The position numbers and the translations under genes were made by a program. From the IMG/VR virus record IMGVR_UViG_3300011989_000007, positions 1 through 64,000 of that record: a stretch of DNA of 64,000 bases. The stretch is one strand, 5' to 3'. This document shows, piece after piece, positions 40,837-50,163 of this stretch; within the stretch, counting starts at the first letter, position 1; each line of letters opens with the position of its first letter. This DNA is from a virus. Lineage: Duplodnaviria; Caudoviricetes. The notes below the pieces were generated by a model. That model was not told the origin of the DNA, did not search any database, and saw nothing but the letters and a program-made list of their open reading frames with translations.

Positions 40837-43371
40837 ATGACGGCACGAAATGAAAGAAAAGATTTAGGGTTCTTAGGAGAGGACTTTCAGTACAAATTGG
40901 TAAGAGAGTTTACTGACGATAAGGAACTCTTTAAGGATTTGAGTAGCGTCATTGACCAAAATATGTTCACCGACCCTAATTTGAAGACTTATGTAGGCGT
41001 AATGAAGGAATACTATGAAAAGTATGATAGTGTTCCTTCATACGATATAATTCAAGTAAAACTATTTGAGAAATCGCATTCTGACACCGAAAGAGAGTTC
41101 TATGCTGCAATAGTTGACAAAATCAAGCATACGCCTACAGATGGTTCTGAATTTATTAGGGACACTGCAACAAAATTCTTCAAGCAGCAGAACATTATTA
41201 AAACTGCAAACGAAATCTTAAAGATTGCAGGAAATGGTGATGTTTCTAATTACGACAAGTGTGTTGAATTGCTCAATGGCGCATTAAATGCAGGTACACA
41301 CAATGATTTAGGTTCAGGCGTATTTGATAATGAAGAAGAGACACTTTCAGATGATTATCGTATACCAATTCCAACGGGTATTGAAGGAATTGATGAAACG
41401 CTTGAAGGTGGTATTGGCAAGGGAGAACTTGGCGTAATCGTTGGACCAAGTTCGTTCGGTAAATCACAACCACTTGATGCTAGAATATTAACCCCAAATG
41501 GATATAAACTAATGGGAGAAATGTCTGTTGGAGATTATGTAATAGGTTCTGACGGTAAACCTCATGTTGTAAGTGGTATATATCCTCAAGGCAAAAGACC
41601 AATATATAAAGTTTCATTTTCAAATGGTACTTCGTGTGAATGTGATATAGAACATTTATGGAATGTAAATTCTCTCTATCAAAGATGCGGTAAAAAATAT
41701 GTCGCAGGTATTTCCAAAAACAGAGACGATAAAATATATGCTCCTGATCATTCATTTAAAACTTTATCCTTAAGAGAAATATTAGAAAAAGGACTAACTA
41801 AAAAAGGTTCTTCAAAATATAACTTCAAGGTTCCTGTGGTTAAACCGATTGAATTTGCTGAGCAAGAAACTAAGTTTGACCCATATTTAGCAGGCTATTA
41901 TATTGGTGATGGTTGTTTTAAAAGAGTTGGAATAACAGTTGGAAAAAACGATAAAGAATGTGTTGAATCAATTTTGAAACCAATTTTAAATGAAGATTTG
42001 CATATTTTTTATAGAGAAAAAAGAAACATTTATCAATTTGATATTATAGGACAAACAAAAAAGAATTTAAAAGAATGCTTTTCTACAGAATGCAAATCAG
42101 ATGGTAAATTTATACCTAAAGAATATTTGTTCAATTCCATCGAAAAAAGAATTGCTATTTTACAGGGTATAATGGATTCTGATGGTCACGCAAACAAAAA
42201 TGGTTCTTGTGAATTCTGTAGTAAGAGTAAACAACTCGCATTAGATGTACAATTTCTTGTTCGTTCCCTTGGAGGTTTTGCAAGTTTAAAAGAATCAAGT
42301 TCTTCATATTTTTCTAAAAAATACAATAAGAGAATAGATTGTGGTAAACGTTATAGGGTGACTATAAGTATGTGCGACAACTCTATTCCATTATTTAGAA
42401 TGGAAAGGAAACAAACAAGAGTTAAATATCGCACACGTGGGGCAGATGCTTTGTTTATGACAAACGCTGAATATGTTGGAGAAAAAGAAGCACAGTGTAT
42501 AATGGTAGATTCTGATGAACATTTATATGTTACTGAAGATTTTATTGTAACGCATAACACGTCTTTGACCACTGCTATTGCAGGATTTGCTTCAACATAT
42601 CCTTGTGAGCAGAACAATTATGAGGGTTTCAAGGTACTTCAGATTGTATTCGAGGATAGAGTAAAGCAGATTCAGAGAAAGCATTTTGGTCGTATCACTG
42701 GTATTGAATCTAAGGATTTGGGTAAGCCTGAATATATTAATACCGTTCGAGAGCAACTCGACCATTATGAAGGTAAGGAAATGATGGAGAAAAACTTACG
42801 TATTCTTCGTCTTCCAAGTGGAGAAAAGACTGCTTGGGATATTGAACGAATTATTAAGAGGTTTATTAACAATGGTTTTAGACCTGACCTTGTAATCGTT
42901 GACTATTTTGAATGTTTGGCACATAGGAACGAAGGCACTCTGTCAGAGTGGGAACAAGAAGGTAAGACTATGCGAAAGTTCGAGGCTATGGCAGGTACAC
43001 TTAATATGGCATTTTGGATTCCTCTTCAAGGAACTAAAGACTCTGTTAATATGGAGCTTGTTACTATGGATAAAGCAGGTGGCTCTTTCAAGAAGATTCA
43101 GATTGCACACATAGTAATGTCAATAGCACGTTCAAACGAGGATATTGCTGAAAATAAGGCAACTATCGCAATCTTAAAGAATAGAGCAGGTAAAGCTGGT
43201 AAGGTATTTAACAATGTTGAGTTCAACAATGGTACTTGCCGAATCAGTACTGCAAATTGTGATGATGGTCTTGATTCAATGTTCGCTTTCGATAAGAAGC
43301 AACAAAAGGATAGAGATAATCTCGCATCAGAAATTTTTAAGAAGTATAAAGCCGAACATGGAGCAAAATAA
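40837..43371 (+). CDS. dnaB: Replicative DnaB/gp41-like helicase containing an intein
   Basis: IPTG...LEGGIGKGELGVIVGPSSFGK|T; Walker B VIVDY; ILKNR. Confidence 0.9.
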   Translation: MTARNERKDLGFLGEDFQYKLVREFTDDKELFKDLSSVIDQNMFTDPNLKTYVGVMKEYYEKYDSVPSYDIIQVKLFEKSHSDTEREFYAAIVDKIKHTPTDGSEFIRDTATKFFKQQNIIKTANEILKIAGNGDVSNYDKCVELLNGALNAGTHNDLGSGVFDNEEETLSDDYRIPIPTGIEGIDETLEGGIGKGELGVIVGPSSFGKSQPLDARILTPNGYKLMGEMSVGDYVIGSDGKPHVVSGIYPQGKRPIYKVSFSNGTSCECDIEHLWNVNSLYQRCGKKYVAGISKNRDDKIYAPDHSFKTLSLREILEKGLTKKGSSKYNFKVPVVKPIEFAEQETKFDPYLAGYYIGDGCFKRVGITVGKNDKECVESILKPILNEDLHIFYREKRNIYQFDIIGQTKKNLKECFSTECKSDGKFIPKEYLFNSIEKRIAILQGIMDSDGHANKNGSCEFCSKSKQLALDVQFLVRSLGGFASLKESSSSYFSKKYNKRIDCGKRYRVTISMCDNSIPLFRMERKQTRVKYRTRGADALFMTNAEYVGEKEAQCIMVDSDEHLYVTEDFIVTHNTSLTTAIAGFASTYPCEQNNYEGFKVLQIVFEDRVKQIQRKHFGRITGIESKDLGKPEYINTVREQLDHYEGKEMMEKNLRILRLPSGEKTAWDIERIIKRFINNGFRPDLVIVDYFECLAHRNEGTLSEWEQEGKTMRKFEAMAGTLNMAFWIPLQGTKDSVNMELVTMDKAGGSFKKIQIAHIVMSIARSNEDIAENKATIAILKNRAGKAGKVFNNVEFNNGTCRISTANCDDGLDSMFAFDKKQQKDRDNLASEIFKKYKAEHGAK
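41464..42558 (+). mobile_element. Intein (365 aa) with LAGLIDADG endonuclease, inserted in the helicase P-loop
   Basis: Starts SQPLDARILTP right after GK; ends IVTHN before Thr; internal AGYYIGDG and LQGIMDSDG. Confidence 0.92.
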
Positions 43372-43601: not shown

Positions 43602-46600
43602 ATGAAAGTTTTAAAACGTGACAAAACCGTTGAGGAATTTCAGATTAAAAAAATTGAAAAGGCTATAGGCGCAGCCTTTGAATCCTGTGGTGAAACACCA
43701 AAATCTGACGTATTGGACTGTATCAAGTCCATTTACAATGAAAATGATGACATCACAATTGATGTAGAAGAGATACAAGATAATGTTGAACGATGTTTAA
43801 TGGCTTCTTATCCTGATGTTGCGAAGGCTTATATTATCTATAGGTATCAGCACAAGTTGATAAGGGAAAATCAGAGCAAATTGGTTAAACAGATTAAAAA
43901 GAAATTAACTGCTGAAGACGTTCAGAACCAAAATGCCAATGTTGATGAGTTCTCATTCGGAGGACGTATTGGTGAAGCCAGTAGAGTTGTGACGAAACAA
44001 TATGCACTTGACTATTGTATGTCAAGGAAGTCAAGGAATAACCACCTTAACAACGAAATTTATATCCATAAGTTAAAAATTGTGGCATAAATCAGTAATG
44101 ATTTATTGAAAACTGCGTGAACACATGACTCGTGTGGTGTGGGGTTACATAACATGTAAACCTGCTAACGGTATCAGCTAAATAAGGGAAATGAATCAAC
44201 CACGAATACGCTGACTAAGAGAACTTACGGTCTATGATGTGATAGATAGCAAGCAATACCGTGCTAAACTAAGTTTTTAATTATTAAACCTTAAAATATT
44301 AAAAACAGAAAGAAGTGTATCGACTAAAGGCGATGAGTGTAGCCTTGTAGGGTAGGGATGAGTACTACTCGAAGTGCGTGGCATCCTAAAGAGGATGGTG
44401 AGATAGTCAGTTCAATATAGAAATATATCGAGTAAACGGATTTAGATTCATATGCGATTGGAATGCATAACTGCTTGACTGTACCATTTGATGAATTGCT
44501 TTCTAAAGGCTTCAAAACAAGACAAACCGATATTAGACCTGCAAATTCAATTAATACTGCTTTCCAATTGGTAGCAGTTCTTTTTCAAATTCAGTCATTG
44601 CAACAGTTTGGGGGTGTAGCCTCAAGTCACATTGATTGGACAATGGTCCCGTATGTAAGGAAGTCATTTTATAAGCATTTTACTAAGAAGTACATTCTTA
44701 GCGAAATGAAAAAGGAAAATGTTGATTTCAAACATAGTAAGGATTTTAGTGAATATTGTAAGCTAAAACGCAAAGAGTTCAACGAGAAGTATGGTATTGA
44801 AGATGAGAAGTTCGTAATTGGTGATTTTTCAATGGATTGCGTTAATTTCCATGTTGGTGATGAGAAATTAATGAATATTAATAAAGACTGGTATGATGAG
44901 GCTTTGATTAGTACAACTGAAGAGTTGAGACAAGCAGTTGAAGGAATGTATCATAACCTCAACTCATTGCAAAGTCGTAGTGGTTGGGCTAAAAGCGATT
45001 GCCACCTTGTAGCATAATACATAAACTACAAGAAAAATCCCGTAAAATCGGTGAAGGCTAAAAAAAAATACGTTCTAATTATTTGACGTTAATTAATGCT
45101 AATACCGAGGCAATTTTGTAGATTTCGAAAGGCTACAAAACACCGTAGAGCGTAGGTGGTGAATAAATATAATCCACCCAAGAGTGCGGGACACCTTTGT
45201 GAAAGCGAAGGTGAAAATGTACGCCGAACTTATTGGAAACAATAAGATTTATGATTTAAACGGTCATAAGATAACAATCTTGAATCAGCTAGAAGTAAAC
45301 GTGGCTGCTTAAGGAGAAATCCTTTCGAATAAATTGGGTAAAATCGGTGAACCCTAAATTTTAAATTGTAAAATATAAAAAATATTTCATTTACTTGACT
45401 AAAAAATAAAAATGCCTACTTTTTATATGATAAGTAAATGATTTATTATGGCTAGAAAACAAATTACAGACGAATTAAAGGAAGATATAAAGAAATTCTA
45501 TCACACAAAACCAATGCCGTTCTCAATGGTTTGTGAAAAATATGGGTTAAGCCAACCTACAGTTGGTAAAATATTAAAAGATGAAAAAAAATATGCTAAA
45601 GCATCAATTTATAACCCAGAACTTATTGATTCATACTTTGAGAATATTGACACTGAAGTAAAAGCTTATTTTATAGGTTTGATAATTGCTGATGGTAATG
45701 TTTTTGTCGATGAGAAAAACAAAAATGCGAATAGACAAGCGTCAATCTCTTTAACATTAGAATCAAATGACGAATATATTTTGGAAAAATTCAAAAAAGA
45801 GGTAAAATCAAACACTAGCATTTCTCACGATGGAAGAGGATGTTCGCAAATAGCAGTTAGGAGTAATAAAATGTCAGAAGATTTATCAAGATATGGAATT
45901 ATTCCAAGAAAAAGCTTTTCAACCTATTTACCGTTACTAAAAAACGATTTAATGCCACATCTCATTAGAGGTATAATGGATGGCGATGGTAGCATAGCTG
46001 CTCATACGATAAAAAGTGGTAGTTTTTTACATTCAATTTCTTTTTGTGGTACGCATAAATTAATGAACGATATATCTGACTATTTATATAGTAATGTAAG
46101 TTTGAAAACAAAGCCTAGAGTATATGATTATAAAAACAAACCATTAAGTGAAATTTCCATTAGGAGTAAAGATGATATGGTTAAATTTGGCAATTACATT
46201 TATAATAATTCATCTATATACCTAATTAGGAAAAAAAATATTTATAATTTATTTTTAGAGCATTACAATTTAAAACAAGGGAATACCGAGGTAAGTTCTG
46301 AGATTACGAAAGGCTCAGAAACACTGTAGAGCGTAGGTGGTGAATAAATATAATCCACCCAAGAGTATCCACCCTTAGCACGTAATGGTGAAGGTGTAAA
46401 TGTACGCCGACCTTGTGGGAAACCACAAGAACTATAGGATAAAAAGCCTATAGGATAACAAAGTGACCTTTCACATCAATCAACTACGGAACTTGTACAC
46501 TACCTGAAGGTAGAATGGTTATCAAGGCATTGCTAGAAGGTTCAATAAATGGTGTTGGTGAACATCATTTGACACCTATTTTCCCTTGTGGTATTTTCCA

Positions 46601-48309
46601 ATGCATGAAGGGTGTAAATAGGAAAGAAGGAGAACCTAACTACGATTTGTTCAAGCTCGCATTGGAATCAACATCTCAGAGGATTTATCCTAATTATGTA
46701 AATGTTGATTGGTCAGTAAATGCAGGATATGACTCAAATAATCCTAGGACATATACTGCAACGATGGGTAAGCGTAAACTACAGCTCATCGCAAAAATCT
46801 CTTGAACCACGCTCGTGGGTGTCCAGAAATGGGCTAACGGTTAGGTCTTTTTAACATAAAGATGAGACCGTGTGAAGATTTATCGTTTTGAAATATATTA
46901 CGATAAATAACATGTATCGACTATCCCTGATGAATGTAAGGGAGTAGGGGTGGAGATAAGCACCACCTCAAAGCGGGAGACTACGAAAGTAGAAGATATA
47001 GTCAGTGCCTTTGGCGACAAAGGAAATAAACGTGTAGAACTTACAATGGTTATGATATTAATGGTCTTGGCCAAATGAAGGATGGTAGAGGTAATTTAGC
47101 ACCTGTGACCATTATTATGCCTACTTTGGCTATGGAAGCAAAGGAGATGCTTGAAGGCAAGGAATTTACAAAGGAAGAGCTTGTTAATAAATTTATGAAA
47201 GTTCTTGATAAGAAGATTCACGAGGCTAAAGATATGCTTCTTGAACGTTTTGAAAGAATGTGCAGTCAGAGTCCAAAGGCAGCTTCATTTATGTGGCTTA
47301 ATGGTACAATGTTTGGTTATAACGAGAAGGAAGGACCAATTTCAGCATTACGCCATGGAACTCTAGCAGCGGGACAATTAGGCTTGGCGGAGACTCTTAA
47401 CATTTTGATTGGCAAAGACCAAACAACTGAAGAGGGTATGGCATTGGCCAAAGAGATTGAAGGGTTGTTTAAGAAGAGATGCGCTGAATTCAAGAAGCAG
47501 TACAGTTTGAACTTTGGCGTTTATTATACACCAGCAGAAAATCTTTGCTATACATCATTCAAGAAGTTCAAGGATAAGTATGGTGACATTGAAGGTGTTA
47601 CATATTATATTAAGAAGGACGAGAATGGTAATGAAACAAGAAAGGATAAGGAGTACTTTACTAACTCAATACACGTACCTGTTTATAAAGAGATGAGTCC
47701 ATTTGACAAGATTGACATCGAAAGTCAGTTGACATCATTCTCAAATGCAGGTTGTATCACTTACGTTGAGCTACCTTCAGGTACTAAGAACAATATAGAG
47801 GGTCTTGAAACTATTGTGAATTATGCAATGGATTCCGATATTCCTTACTTTGCAATAAACGTACCAATTGATGAGTGTCACGATTGTGGCTATACTGACG
47901 AAATGGGTGATACTTGTCCTGAGTGTGGTAGTCATAATGTTCAGCACCTAAGACGTGTAACTGGTCGATAAAGTGGCCGTTTTCAGAAGCAATTCTGATT
48001 ATTATTATTGGGCAAAATCGGTGAAGCCTAAAAGTTTAAACTCAAGGTAATACCGAGATAATGTTAAATTAACAAATTAACACATTGTAACGCATAGAAA
48101 ATGAAACTCGCAAGAGAATATAATTTTTCCAAGAGTGCCCAACCCCTATTAGGGTGAAAATGTATGCTGAACTTATAGGAAACTATAAGAACATAAGGAT
48201 AAAAAACCTTATGGGTAACAAATTGTACTTATCAACAACTTACGAACATTTCAATCTTGGTAAACAGGATGAGGTTAAAGATCGTGTTAAACACATAAAT
48301 AAATTTTGA
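43602..48309 (+). CDS. nrdD: Anaerobic ribonucleoside-triphosphate reductase in 6 exons: 43602-44069, 44439-44984, 45283-45290, 46466-46769, 47033-47965, 48226-48309 (2343 nt, 780 aa)
   Basis: Splicing restores IYIH|DLD..HNC, SRSG|NQL|PFTSINYG, TMG|CRT and RRVTG|YL; N-terminal ATP cone; CHDC..CPEC zinc site. Confidence 0.92.
44070..44438 (+). ncRNA. Group I intron 1 of nrdD (no ORF)
   Basis: 5' exon ends in U, intron ends in G; P1 ccau/gugg; P7 gacua/uaguc. Confidence 0.88.
44985..45282 (+). ncRNA. Group I intron 2 of nrdD (no ORF)
   Basis: P1 guggu/gccac; P10 gauu/aauc; P7 gcgua/uacgc; terminal G. Confidence 0.88.
45291..46465 (+). ncRNA. Group I intron 3 of nrdD (carries a homing endonuclease)
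   Basis: P1 cagcu/ggcug; core shared with intron 2; terminal G at 46465. Confidence 0.88.
45448..46329 (+). CDS. Intron-encoded double-motif LAGLIDADG homing endonuclease with N-terminal HTH
   Basis: AYFIGLIIADG and LIRGIMDGDG; 3' end runs into the intron core. Confidence 0.9.
   Translation: MARKQITDELKEDIKKFYHTKPMPFSMVCEKYGLSQPTVGKILKDEKKYAKASIYNPELIDSYFENIDTEVKAYFIGLIIADGNVFVDEKNKNANRQASISLTLESNDEYILEKFKKEVKSNTSISHDGRGCSQIAVRSNKMSEDLSRYGIIPRKSFSTYLPLLKNDLMPHLIRGIMDGDGSIAAHTIKSGSFLHSISFCGTHKLMNDISDYLYSNVSLKTKPRVYDYKNKPLSEISIRSKDDMVKFGNYIYNNSSIYLIRKKNIYNLFLEHYNLKQGNTEVSSEITKGSETL
46770..47032 (+). ncRNA. Group I intron 4 of nrdD (no ORF)
   Basis: P1 gaugggu/gcucauc; P10 cuaca/uguag; P7 gacua/uaguc. 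Confidence 0.9.
47966..48225 (+). ncRNA. Group I intron 5 of nrdD (no ORF)
   Basis: P1 ggu/gcc; P10 aagug/uacuu; aaaucggugaa...aauaccgag core as in introns 2 and 3. Confidence 0.88.
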
Positions 48310-48314
48310 AAATA

Positions 48315-48347
48315 ATTAAACCCAGAAATGCATTTTCTGGGTTTAAT
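48315..48347 (+). terminator. Strong hairpin after nrdD
   Basis: attaaacccagaaa...tttctgggtttaat; no clean U-tract. Confidence 0.55.
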
Positions 48348-48395
48348 AAATATTTATTAATGTGTGAGAGGATTAAACCACTAACACGACTAAAT

Positions 48396-49406
48396 ATGAA
48401 TTATAAAAAAATTTACGAAGATTTAATTAATAGAGCGAAAGAAAGAAAAGATTTAGAAACTTACTTTGAAATACATCATATCATACCTAAATCAGTTGGT
48501 GGTAATAATGATGAAGATAATTTGGTTAAATTAACTTTAAGGGAACATTATTTAGCACACGAATTATTGGCTTTTATTTATCCTGAAAGTAAAGAATTAA
48601 AATATGCTTTATGGATGATGACAACTTCAACGATTGCAGCTGAAAATGAATTTAAAAATGGTGCGAAGAATATTAAAGGTAGGGTTAAACATTTTTTAGA
48701 AACTAATACTAAAAAGATTAGAATTAGTTCATATGAATACGATTTGTTTAGAAGGAAGATTTCTTCATTAAGAAGGATGAAAAGATATAGTGCTGACGAA
48801 AGAAAAAACGTTTCTGAAGGTACAAGAAAAGCAATGAAAAATCCTGATGTCATTAAAAAATGCATTAGTGGCTCTAAAGGTTGCCATTATTATCACGATA
48901 AAGTAACTCAAAAAGTCTACAAATGGTTTCCTGGTGATGGTGATATTGATTTAGATAAATACGAATGGGGCAGATGTCCTATGACCGCTGAGCAAAAGAA
49001 AAAATTATCTGACTTATCTAATATGAAGAAAAGGTATTTTATTATCCCAGAAATAAATGCCAAATACACAATGTATGAAAATTATTTAAATTGTGTGCCA
49101 AGTCATTGGGAGGAAAAATGGACTAACAAATCTAATCGTAATTTACGAAATAATTTAATATCGGCTATAAGAAAGGTGAACATATTAACATCATTTAAAT
49201 ATGAAAATGAATTAATAATAAAAGATTCTAATAAAAGTAAGAATTTTAAAATTATTTCACCCTCTATTTATGAACACTGTGCTGATTCAATGGAAGGTTG
49301 GGAAAATGAAGACGTTTCTGATAAAATTTCAAAGAGCATTATATTAAATATTGATAAAATTATTAATAGTAATAAAATTTATATAAAAGTCAAAAATTAT
49401 GATTGA
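48396..49406 (+). CDS. Free-standing HNH endonuclease (T4 Mob-like) between nrdD and nrdG
   Basis: MNYKKIYEDLI...EIHHIIPKSVGG...NLVKLTLREHYLAHELL; start set to ATG 48396. Confidence 0.85.
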   Translation: MNYKKIYEDLINRAKERKDLETYFEIHHIIPKSVGGNNDEDNLVKLTLREHYLAHELLAFIYPESKELKYALWMMTTSTIAAENEFKNGAKNIKGRVKHFLETNTKKIRISSYEYDLFRRKISSLRRMKRYSADERKNVSEGTRKAMKNPDVIKKCISGSKGCHYYHDKVTQKVYKWFPGDGDIDLDKYEWGRCPMTAEQKKKLSDLSNMKKRYFIIPEINAKYTMYENYLNCVPSHWEEKWTNKSNRNLRNNLISAIRKVNILTSFKYENELIIKDSNKSKNFKIISPSIYEHCADSMEGWENEDVSDKISKSIILNIDKIINSNKIYIKVKNYD

Positions 49407-49668
49407 TAAATTATTATTTATTTTCGATGATGAAGTTGTAAAAATTAATTTATCTAACACTGAATCGCTACACAATATTAATTTCCAAAGTGATTTAGAC
49501 AAGAAAAACTTTATGAAATGTGTTAGAGGCTATAGTGAAGGCTTGCCTCGTTTAACAGGAAATACTACTAATTTCGGCTACATCGAATGCGGTACTGAAA
49601 AGTGGCTTAACAAGCTACCTTCATTAGTTTTCGGTGAAGATTTTAATATAAAATTAATAATAGAATGA
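49399..49668 (+). CDS. Hypothetical protein
   Basis: 89-aa ORF overlapping the HNH stop. Confidence 0.6.
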   Translation: MIDKLLFIFDDEVVKINLSNTESLHNINFQSDLDKKNFMKCVRGYSEGLPRLTGNTTNFGYIECGTEKWLNKLPSLVFGEDFNIKLIIE

Positions 49669-49674
49669 TGAATT

Positions 49675-50163
49675 ATGAGATTTTGGAGTATTAGTTACCC
49701 AGACTTAAACAATGGTTTGGGTTGCAGAGTTACCCTATGGGTAGCAGGTTGTTCACACCATTGTAAAGGATGCCAAAATAGACAGACTTGGGATTTTGAA
49801 GGAGGAAGATTATTTACCAAAACTGATAAGGATAATTTATTTGAGGCTTTGAATAAGCCATATATTAAAGGAGTAACGCTTAGTGGCGGAGACCCTATGG
49901 ATAATTTTTATGAAATATTGGAGTTAGTTAAGGAAATCAAAGAGAAGTTTCCATCAAAAGATATTTGGTTATATACTGGTTATACATTAAAAGAAATTGA
50001 AGATAGCTTTAGGAATGAAATCATTCCATACATTGATTATTTAGTTGACGGACGATTTGAATTAGATAAGAGAGACATTTCTCTTAAATTTAGAGGTTCT
50101 TCAAACCAAATTATTTGGGTGAAGAATGAAGAAGGAAAATTAGTTAAAAGTGACTTAAATTAG
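49675..50163 (+). CDS. nrdG: Anaerobic RNR activating enzyme (radical SAM)
   Basis: GCSHHCKGCQN, SGGDP, WLYTGY, VDGRF, FRGSSNQ. Confidence 0.95.
   Translation: MRFWSISYPDLNNGLGCRVTLWVAGCSHHCKGCQNRQTWDFEGGRLFTKTDKDNLFEALNKPYIKGVTLSGGDPMDNFYEILELVKEIKEKFPSKDIWLYTGYTLKEIEDSFRNEIIPYIDYLVDGRFELDKRDISLKFRGSSNQIIWVKNEEGKLVKSDLN

Follow-up and report, generated by a model that had tools for sequence, protein, structure and literature searches.

A predicted eight-nucleotide exon between two group I introns in the nrdD gene of an uncultured phage, and the neighboring intron sites used in its relatives

The nrdD gene in a 64,000-nucleotide stretch of DNA from an uncultured phage of the gut or rumen type raises the question of whether as few as 8 nucleotides (nt) between two group I introns can be a genuine exon and, if so, whether the crowding of two ribozymes on so short a segment is a regulatory device or a by-product of intron mobility. 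This stretch, hereafter the window, is the start of a 107-kb IMG/VR virus record (IMGVR_UViG_3300011989_000007; completeness estimate, about 32%), and its positions 43602-50163 hold nrdD, a free-standing HNH endonuclease gene and nrdG. Our results make it highly probable that two mobile group I introns from a single family, each independent of the other, occupy two of three neighboring sites around a real 8-nt exon, and the layout of this micro-exon looks like the outcome of selfish introns crowding one hot spot rather than a designed switch. The segments on which the argument turns are listed below, with the evidence for each; L199 and L220 are two related loci described further on, and an arrow marks the point of insertion.

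44439-44984, plus strand: nrdD exon 2, ending ...LQSRSG (AGT GGT); Pfam NRDD positions 47-154, homologues.
44985-45282, plus strand: intron 2, predicted group I intron of 298 nt without an open reading frame (ORF), at site A (GGN↓AAT); RF00028, helices P1-P9.1, covariation in the family, site-A orthologues.
45283-45290, plus strand: micro-exon AATCAGCT, 8 nt (Asn and Gln codons plus bases 1 and 2 of the Leu codon); homologues, L199, L220.
45291-46465, plus strand: intron 3, predicted group I intron of 1175 nt at site C (CAGCT↓A), with an ORF in the P5 loop; helices, relatives.
45448-46329, plus strand: predicted LAGLIDADG homing endonuclease gene in intron 3 (293 aa, 882 nt); Pfam LAGLIDADG_3, homology to the L199 ORF.
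46466-46769, plus strand: nrdD exon 4 (A followed by PFTSINYG...TATMG); Pfam NRDD positions 158-255, matches to NrdD structures in PDB.

The first-pass annotation of the window had proposed that AATCAGCT, read as an exon, restores the NrdD motif SRSG-NQL-PFTS, and its coordinates hold. Exon 2 ends with ...AGT GGT at 44984, the terminal G of intron 2 is at 45282 and that of intron 3 at 46465, and exon 4 begins with A, then CCT TTC, at 46466. Any upstream extension of exon 4 is blocked by a TGA in frame at 46464-46466. That three residues are missing between the large exons follows from three independent comparisons, namely with the Pfam NRDD profile, with a solved structure and with 158 related IMG/VR nrdD loci. 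The profile is matched by exon 2 up to position 154 and by exon 4 from position 158, with exactly three positions left unmatched in between; the solved NrdD 8p23 reveals the same gap, the exon 2 match running to residue 311 and restarting at 315/316; and exactly 9 nt are found at the gap in 154 of the 158 loci, 150 of these 154 encoding SRSG-NQL-PF[TS]S, several with the identical codons AAT CAG CTA. The further proposals that the segment is preceded by a G and ends in the U of the intron 3 5' site, and that skipping it shifts the frame, are borne out as well: G45282 is read at the end of intron 2, the U takes part in a U.G pair in P1, and dropping the 8 nt brings a stop 13 codons on in the joined sequence. 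Two complete, independent ribozyme cores flank this frame-required segment of less than about 10 nt. Judged from homology and the reading frame, both of which require it, AATCAGCT is a genuine exon.

The flanking elements themselves carry the hallmarks of group I ribozymes. In intron 2, P1 is formed by GUGGU (44980-44984) and GCCAC (45001-45005), and P10 by AAUC (45283-45286) and GAUU (44997-45000); in intron 3, P1 is formed by CAGCU (45286-45290) and GGCUG (45303-45307), and the P10 guide spans 45297-45302. P1 contains a U.G wobble at the 5' splice site of both introns, a terminal G is present in both and in all the site A, B and C orthologues read, and P2-P9.1 were located in both, with the core helices intact. 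For comparative analysis, relatives of the family were gathered via a conserved core string, and ten ORF-less members were assembled in an alignment (A1). RNAalifold recovered P3, P4, P5, P6, a P7.1-type hairpin, P8, P9 and P9.1 from these ten sequences, and 37 of the 50 pairs vary in a compensatory manner. When the P3/P7 pseudoknot is added, 96% of the cells are paired, compared to 32-43% with the partners slid, and both sides change in 38 of 55 pairs; none of 500 shuffles attained the observed values. P7 is 100% paired in A1, with one covarying pair. Between P7 and P3' lies a GGUGG/CCACC hairpin in which 5/5 pairs covary, and no second hairpin (P7.2) was identified there; extra P7.1/P7.2 hairpins at this place are typical of the subgroup IA, or phage-type, layout. 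The nrdD gene (sunY) of phage T4, the same host gene, has a single intron of subgroup IA2, in which an additional hairpin of the P7.1 type stands in the segment from P7 to P3'. Searched alone, intron 2 matches RF00028 along the full model (positions 1-253; 36.8 bits, E 4.6e-8). On this comparative evidence, introns 2 and 3 are group I introns of one family, and guanosine-dependent self-splicing is predicted for both.

The same family includes intron 5 of this gene, introns 1 and 4 belonging to another family with a common core block and the shared ending AAACG. The core of intron 3 is 77% identical to intron 2, and its 13-bp P5a stem (45359-45371 with 46263-46275) closes a loop that holds the LAGLIDADG gene, the stop codon of which lies inside the ribozyme core. 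The encoded protein scores 30.4 bits against Pfam LAGLIDADG_3 (cut-off 22.5) and contains the motifs GLIIADGN and GIMDGDGS, which identifies it as a putative LAGLIDADG homing endonuclease with two motifs in one chain and predicted cleavage activity. On the minus strand of one related locus (L161), two members of the intron 2/3 family, separated by about 9.5 kb, lie in genes that are not nrdD, so the family is not specific to nrdD.

Comparison of related phages indicates how two such introns could come to stand 8 nt apart. Members of the family are found at three sites, all within the DNA for the invariant NrdD motif SRSG-NQL-PFTS:

Site A, GGN↓AAT: occupied alone in L187, L191/L193, L192 and L195, and in L188 as judged by the 3' end.
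Site B, AAT↓CAA: used in L024, L042, L160 and L171; P1 GGAAAU/GUUUCC; P10 of up to 6 bp.
Site C, CAGCT↓A: occupied alone in L181 and L185; P1 GGCUGG or GCCUGAC.

At site A, the guide GAUU-GCC recurs in L191/L193, L192 and L195; P10 (GAUU/AAUC) is constant and P1 covaries with the exon, from GUGGU/GCCAC in the window to CGGGU/GCCCG, AGGU/GCCU and CGGU/GCCG. The site-A guide of L187 could not be paired. Covariation of P1 is also seen in orthologues at site B (GGAAAU/GUUUCC) and site C (GUCAGGU/GCCUGAC). The 3' end of a site-C intron is present in L168 and L180 as well, the upstream part falling outside the fetched locus. A tree built from the 3' halves places intron 3 with the site-C introns of L181 and L168, and intron 2 elsewhere. 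The possibility that intron 2 is a recent duplicate of intron 3 was rejected, given that the two are 74% identical and stand apart in the tree. As each site is occupied alone in other phages, introns 2 and 3 are two independent introns. In a further locus (L128), an intron terminates about 44 nt upstream of where the micro-exon lies in the window; its core string, ...GAUAUAGUC..., is unlike the intron 2/3 family.

The same comparison bears on the reading of 44985-46465 as a single composite element (twintron or one intron) that is excised as a unit at other junctions. The adjacency and relatedness of the two cores (77% identity) would fit such an element, but removal of the 1481 nt shifts the frame, an in-frame TGA stands immediately 5' of exon 4, P1, guide and terminal G are present separately in each half, other phages have both halves as separate introns at precisely these sites, and intron 2 is no recent copy of intron 3. 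Excision as a single unit was rejected on the grounds of the frame and of the single-site orthologues, and we regard its probability as practically negligible.

Two relatives of the locus show it in the empty and in the double state. In L220, which is about 93% identical to the window at the nucleotide level, the site is uninterrupted (...AGC GGC AAC CAA TTG CCG TTC...). Aligned with window positions 44348-49574, L220:1-2754 is without introns 2, 3 and 4 and without the HNH gene (window 48353-49379), and retains the 3' part of intron 1 and the entire intron 5. There are 17 substitutions between L220 and the window in the 60 nt around the site, compared to about 2 per 30 nt elsewhere, a cluster of the kind that would be expected from a short co-conversion tract or from target-site variation. 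In the metagenome contig L199, an identical copy of AATCAGCT lies between a site-A and a site-C intron; nrdD is otherwise uninterrupted there and is followed by nrdG, and the NrdD exons show 66-79% protein identity to those of the window. Here the LAGLIDADG gene resides in the upstream, site-A intron (34% identity to the intron 3 ORF, E 4e-44), and the downstream site-C intron is ORF-less and matches RF00028 with 26 bits (E 7e-5). The tandem state thus recurs, and a gene that harbors it can be intact. A third relative, L219, is a mosaic: L219:1-1524, aligned with window 43917-46952, is 95% identical from 46467 on, including the start of intron 4, and about 70% identical upstream; it lacks introns 1-3, and the break in identity falls exactly at insertion site C.

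Given a real exon shared by two ribozymes, the next question is whether the sharing matters. As the first-pass annotation had pointed out, the guide pairings GAUU/AAUC and GGCUG/CAGCU, both of which we located, cover the micro-exon and overlap at C45286, which belongs both to the intron 2 P10 and to the intron 3 P1; L199, with a P1 of 6 bp at site C, has two such shared bases. With 3 nt between the intron 2 terminal G and the intron 3 P1, joint docking would hardly be possible, and we infer that the two ribozymes cannot be docked on the micro-exon simultaneously. One could conceive that this competition forces an order of splicing, which would be obligatory because the exon is shorter than the summed guide pairings and C45286 is shared, or that it diverts a regulated share of the transcript to a skipped, frameshifted mRNA, which would throttle NrdD by truncating it after 13 further codons. 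Exon skipping between phage group I introns is indeed on record for Twort orf142 and for SIOphi, according to PMC11878797, the former being the precedent that the first-pass annotation had invoked. If such competition operates here and, under some conditions, gives rise to a controlled fraction of skipped mRNA, the locus would be an RNA-level throttle on anaerobic deoxynucleoside triphosphate (dNTP) synthesis during infection.

The pairing energies argue against this possibility, which we consider unlikely. Taken alone, P1 of intron 2 has a predicted energy of -5.5 kcal/mol and P1 of intron 3 of -5.1 kcal/mol, whereas P10 of intron 2, with 4 A/U-rich base pairs, is weak (about 0 kcal/mol), so that the overlap amounts to one base of a weak helix. 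The intron 2 guide is nearly devoid of complementarity to the start of exon 4 (-0.7 kcal/mol) and, because of this, no P10-type alignment of exon 4 for skipping is available. The intron 3 guide could pair with GUAGU at 44977-44981, close to the exon 2 end (-6.0 kcal/mol), any product being out of frame. As far as these features can tell, nothing in the sequence favors exon skipping. Moreover, whichever intron is spliced first, the other retains an ordinary exon context; in the placozoan cox1 gene, where the exon is 1 nt long, intermediates of both orders have been observed (PMC5436844); and the single use of sites A, B and C elsewhere means that crowding explains the tandem without selection for a switch. 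An extended pairing was noticed in the window only, in which AGC-GAUU (44994-45000) pairs with the whole micro-exon, AAUC-A-GCU (45283-45290), with A45287 bulged (-3.7 kcal/mol). It is missing from the other site-A introns and may be due to chance.

A different question is whether the gene that contains the micro-exon is still expressed as an enzyme. The remaining segments of nrdD are the following:

43602-44069, plus strand: exon 1 (ATP-cone; ends ...IYIH); Pfam ATP-cone and NRDD, colinear with the uninterrupted relative L012.
44070-44438, plus strand: intron 1, second intron family, ending AAACG; restored junction IYIH↓DLDSY, block in common with intron 4.
46770-47032, plus strand: intron 4, second family, ending AAACG, at TMG↓CRT; restored junction, not in L220.
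47033-47965, plus strand: exon 5 (CRTYNG...RRVTG); Pfam NRDD and Gly_radical.
47966-48225, plus strand: intron 5, of the same family as introns 2 and 3 (its third member here), inserted in the glycyl-radical motif, RVTG↓Y; repeat families D1, D3 and D4, row in alignment A1.
48226-48309, plus strand: exon 6 (YLSTTYEHF...INKF, stop); spliced coding sequence colinear with L012.

Joined, the six exons give 2343 nt that encode 780 aa plus a stop, colinear with L012 over all five junctions, and the uninterrupted relatives P0006-P0012 (about 85% identity) likewise have 780 aa. The spliced product unites the ATP-cone, the NRDD domain, the catalytic MG↓CRT region and the glycyl-radical motif RVTGY in one colinear chain; each large exon has Pfam matches, and solved NrdD structures also match. 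By these criteria, the spliced gene is predicted to encode a class III (anaerobic) ribonucleotide reductase, NrdD, and an intact nrdG follows downstream.

This reconstruction speaks against the idea that nrdD is decaying and non-functional, with at least one intron no longer splicing and the micro-exon a relic. Splicing at this locus is a prediction from DNA sequence, the P9.1 loop of intron 2 deviates from the family consensus, and five introns are a heavy load on one gene, all of which could be taken to favor decay. However, six open exon pieces that join into a full-length NrdD of 780 aa with its key motifs, core helices that are intact in both introns, an intact nrdG downstream, and the recurrence of the tandem in a diverged phage with an otherwise uninterrupted nrdD make such decay very improbable.

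Several observations were made on other parts of the locus. In P0004, P0016 and P0026, in which NrdD is about 85% identical, an intein (146-349 aa, CHA...THN) is inserted at TMG↓CRT; this is the position of intron 4, so one and the same point is used by both kinds of element, an intron in the window and an intein in these relatives. Exon 2 contains, at about 44690-44900, extra residues (KKYILSEMKKENVDF...NINKDWYDE; net about 45) without a counterpart in L012 and L043, and L220 has the same insertion. The reading frame of the HNH endonuclease between nrdD and nrdG (48303-49406) comprises 367 aa. Upstream of nrdD, at 40837-43371, there is a gene for a DnaB-type helicase with an in-frame LAGLIDADG/Hom_end insert that is intein-like by Pfam. 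A scan of the region for promoters and terminators yielded no signal above background.

The model that we favor, that of two independent mobile introns in one hot spot, translates these observations into a simple scheme. Intron 2, inserted after a Gly codon (site A), and intron 3, inserted after the second base of a Leu codon (site C), would both have to be removed precisely to yield the 780-aa enzyme. Each ribozyme would use its own guide, intron 2 pairing with exon 2 through P1 and with the first half of the micro-exon through a P10 of 4 bp, and intron 3 pairing with the second half through a P1 of 5 bp. Splicing would be constitutive and either order workable; the ORF-less upstream intron 2 probably completes splicing ahead of intron 3, simply because about 1.1 kb of transcription separates the completion of the two cores. 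The tandem state presumably arose by homing into the hot spot, and the ORF-less intron might spread by co-conversion with its endonuclease-bearing neighbor 8 nt away. Intron crowding can account for the layout because one family uses three sites within 8 nt in different phages.

Some results weigh against this model. The search with group I models that the first-pass annotation had suggested was successful in part: the match of RF00028 to intron 2, although significant, falls below the Rfam curated (gathering) threshold of 50 bits, intron 3 has no Rfam match because its core is split by the 882-nt ORF, and Rfam searches at the scale of the window and of 10 kb gave no group I match. The tandem cases found number two, the pattern scans demanded exact family motifs and could miss others, and L220 and L199 are assemblies of unstated library type. 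Finally, splicing, its precision and its order are predictions.

Searches for further cases returned little beyond L199. Megablast against known phages gave short matches to the intron core only, and blastn of intron 2 against annotated phages found about 28 records that match the core, 0 of which are annotated as an intron. Among viral contigs, no relative of the endonuclease was found, and the exact junction string was absent. A degenerate tandem pattern had no match in viral contigs and chance matches only in prokaryote genomes; in metagenomes it matched 11 times, 10 of these by chance and one (L199) real. A more general pattern, aimed at tandem pairs of any kind within the intron 2/3 family, had no match. 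A site-A pattern gave 11 matches, five of which (L189, L190, L194, L196 and L197) are unrelated sequences.

Micro-exons between group I introns are already known, and what the present analysis adds is the three-site hot spot and the presence of an endonuclease gene in either tandem partner. In placozoan mitochondrial cox1, a 1-nt exon between two group IB introns was established by RNA-seq (Osigus et al. 2017; PMC5436844), having initially been missed when the two introns were taken as one. There, as in the window, the exon is shorter than either guide pairing and is flanked by two separate group I introns with their own cores; the present case differs in that the genome is that of a phage, the exon has 8 nt, and the evidence is drawn from sequence, as opposed to a mitochondrial gene, subgroup IB, 1 nt and RNA-seq. 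Closer in its genomic setting is Twort orf142, a phage gene with three group I introns in which exons are skipped (Landthaler and Shub 1999, cited in PMC11878797), which resembles the window nrdD in combining several close, related group I introns in one gene and offers a precedent for the skipping of exons by cooperating ribozymes; unlike nrdD, the Twort gene is structural, and skipping was seen experimentally there. The same paper (Weglewska et al. 2025; PMC11878797) adds a second phage case, describing among Bastillevirinae a small exon flanked on both sides by an intron in the reductase of phiNIT1 and frequent exon skipping in SIOphi. In contrast to the window, these phages infect Bacillus and their reductase is of class I; the text consulted states no size for the exon, and an overlap of guide pairings is not described. 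In jumbo gut (Jug) phages, group I introns break up nrdD in 95 of the 104 genomes, and metatranscriptome reads support splicing for some (PMC12880540). The window shares with them an uncultured gut phage as host and an nrdD split by small group I introns and endonuclease genes; unlike here, no micro-exon is described for Jug phages, and the word 'exon' is absent from the text of that paper.

These findings bear on the annotation of phage genomes, on intron mobility and on ribozyme mechanism. Gene callers fragment this nrdD, and merging both introns into one introduces a frameshift, whereas the 8-nt exon restores the 780-aa enzyme. The single, double and empty states in related phages form a natural series for the study of site choice, co-conversion and the hitch-hiking of ORF-less introns. 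Furthermore, the locus is a substrate for interference between two group I ribozymes that, according to the predicted pairings, grip overlapping halves of an 8-nt exon.

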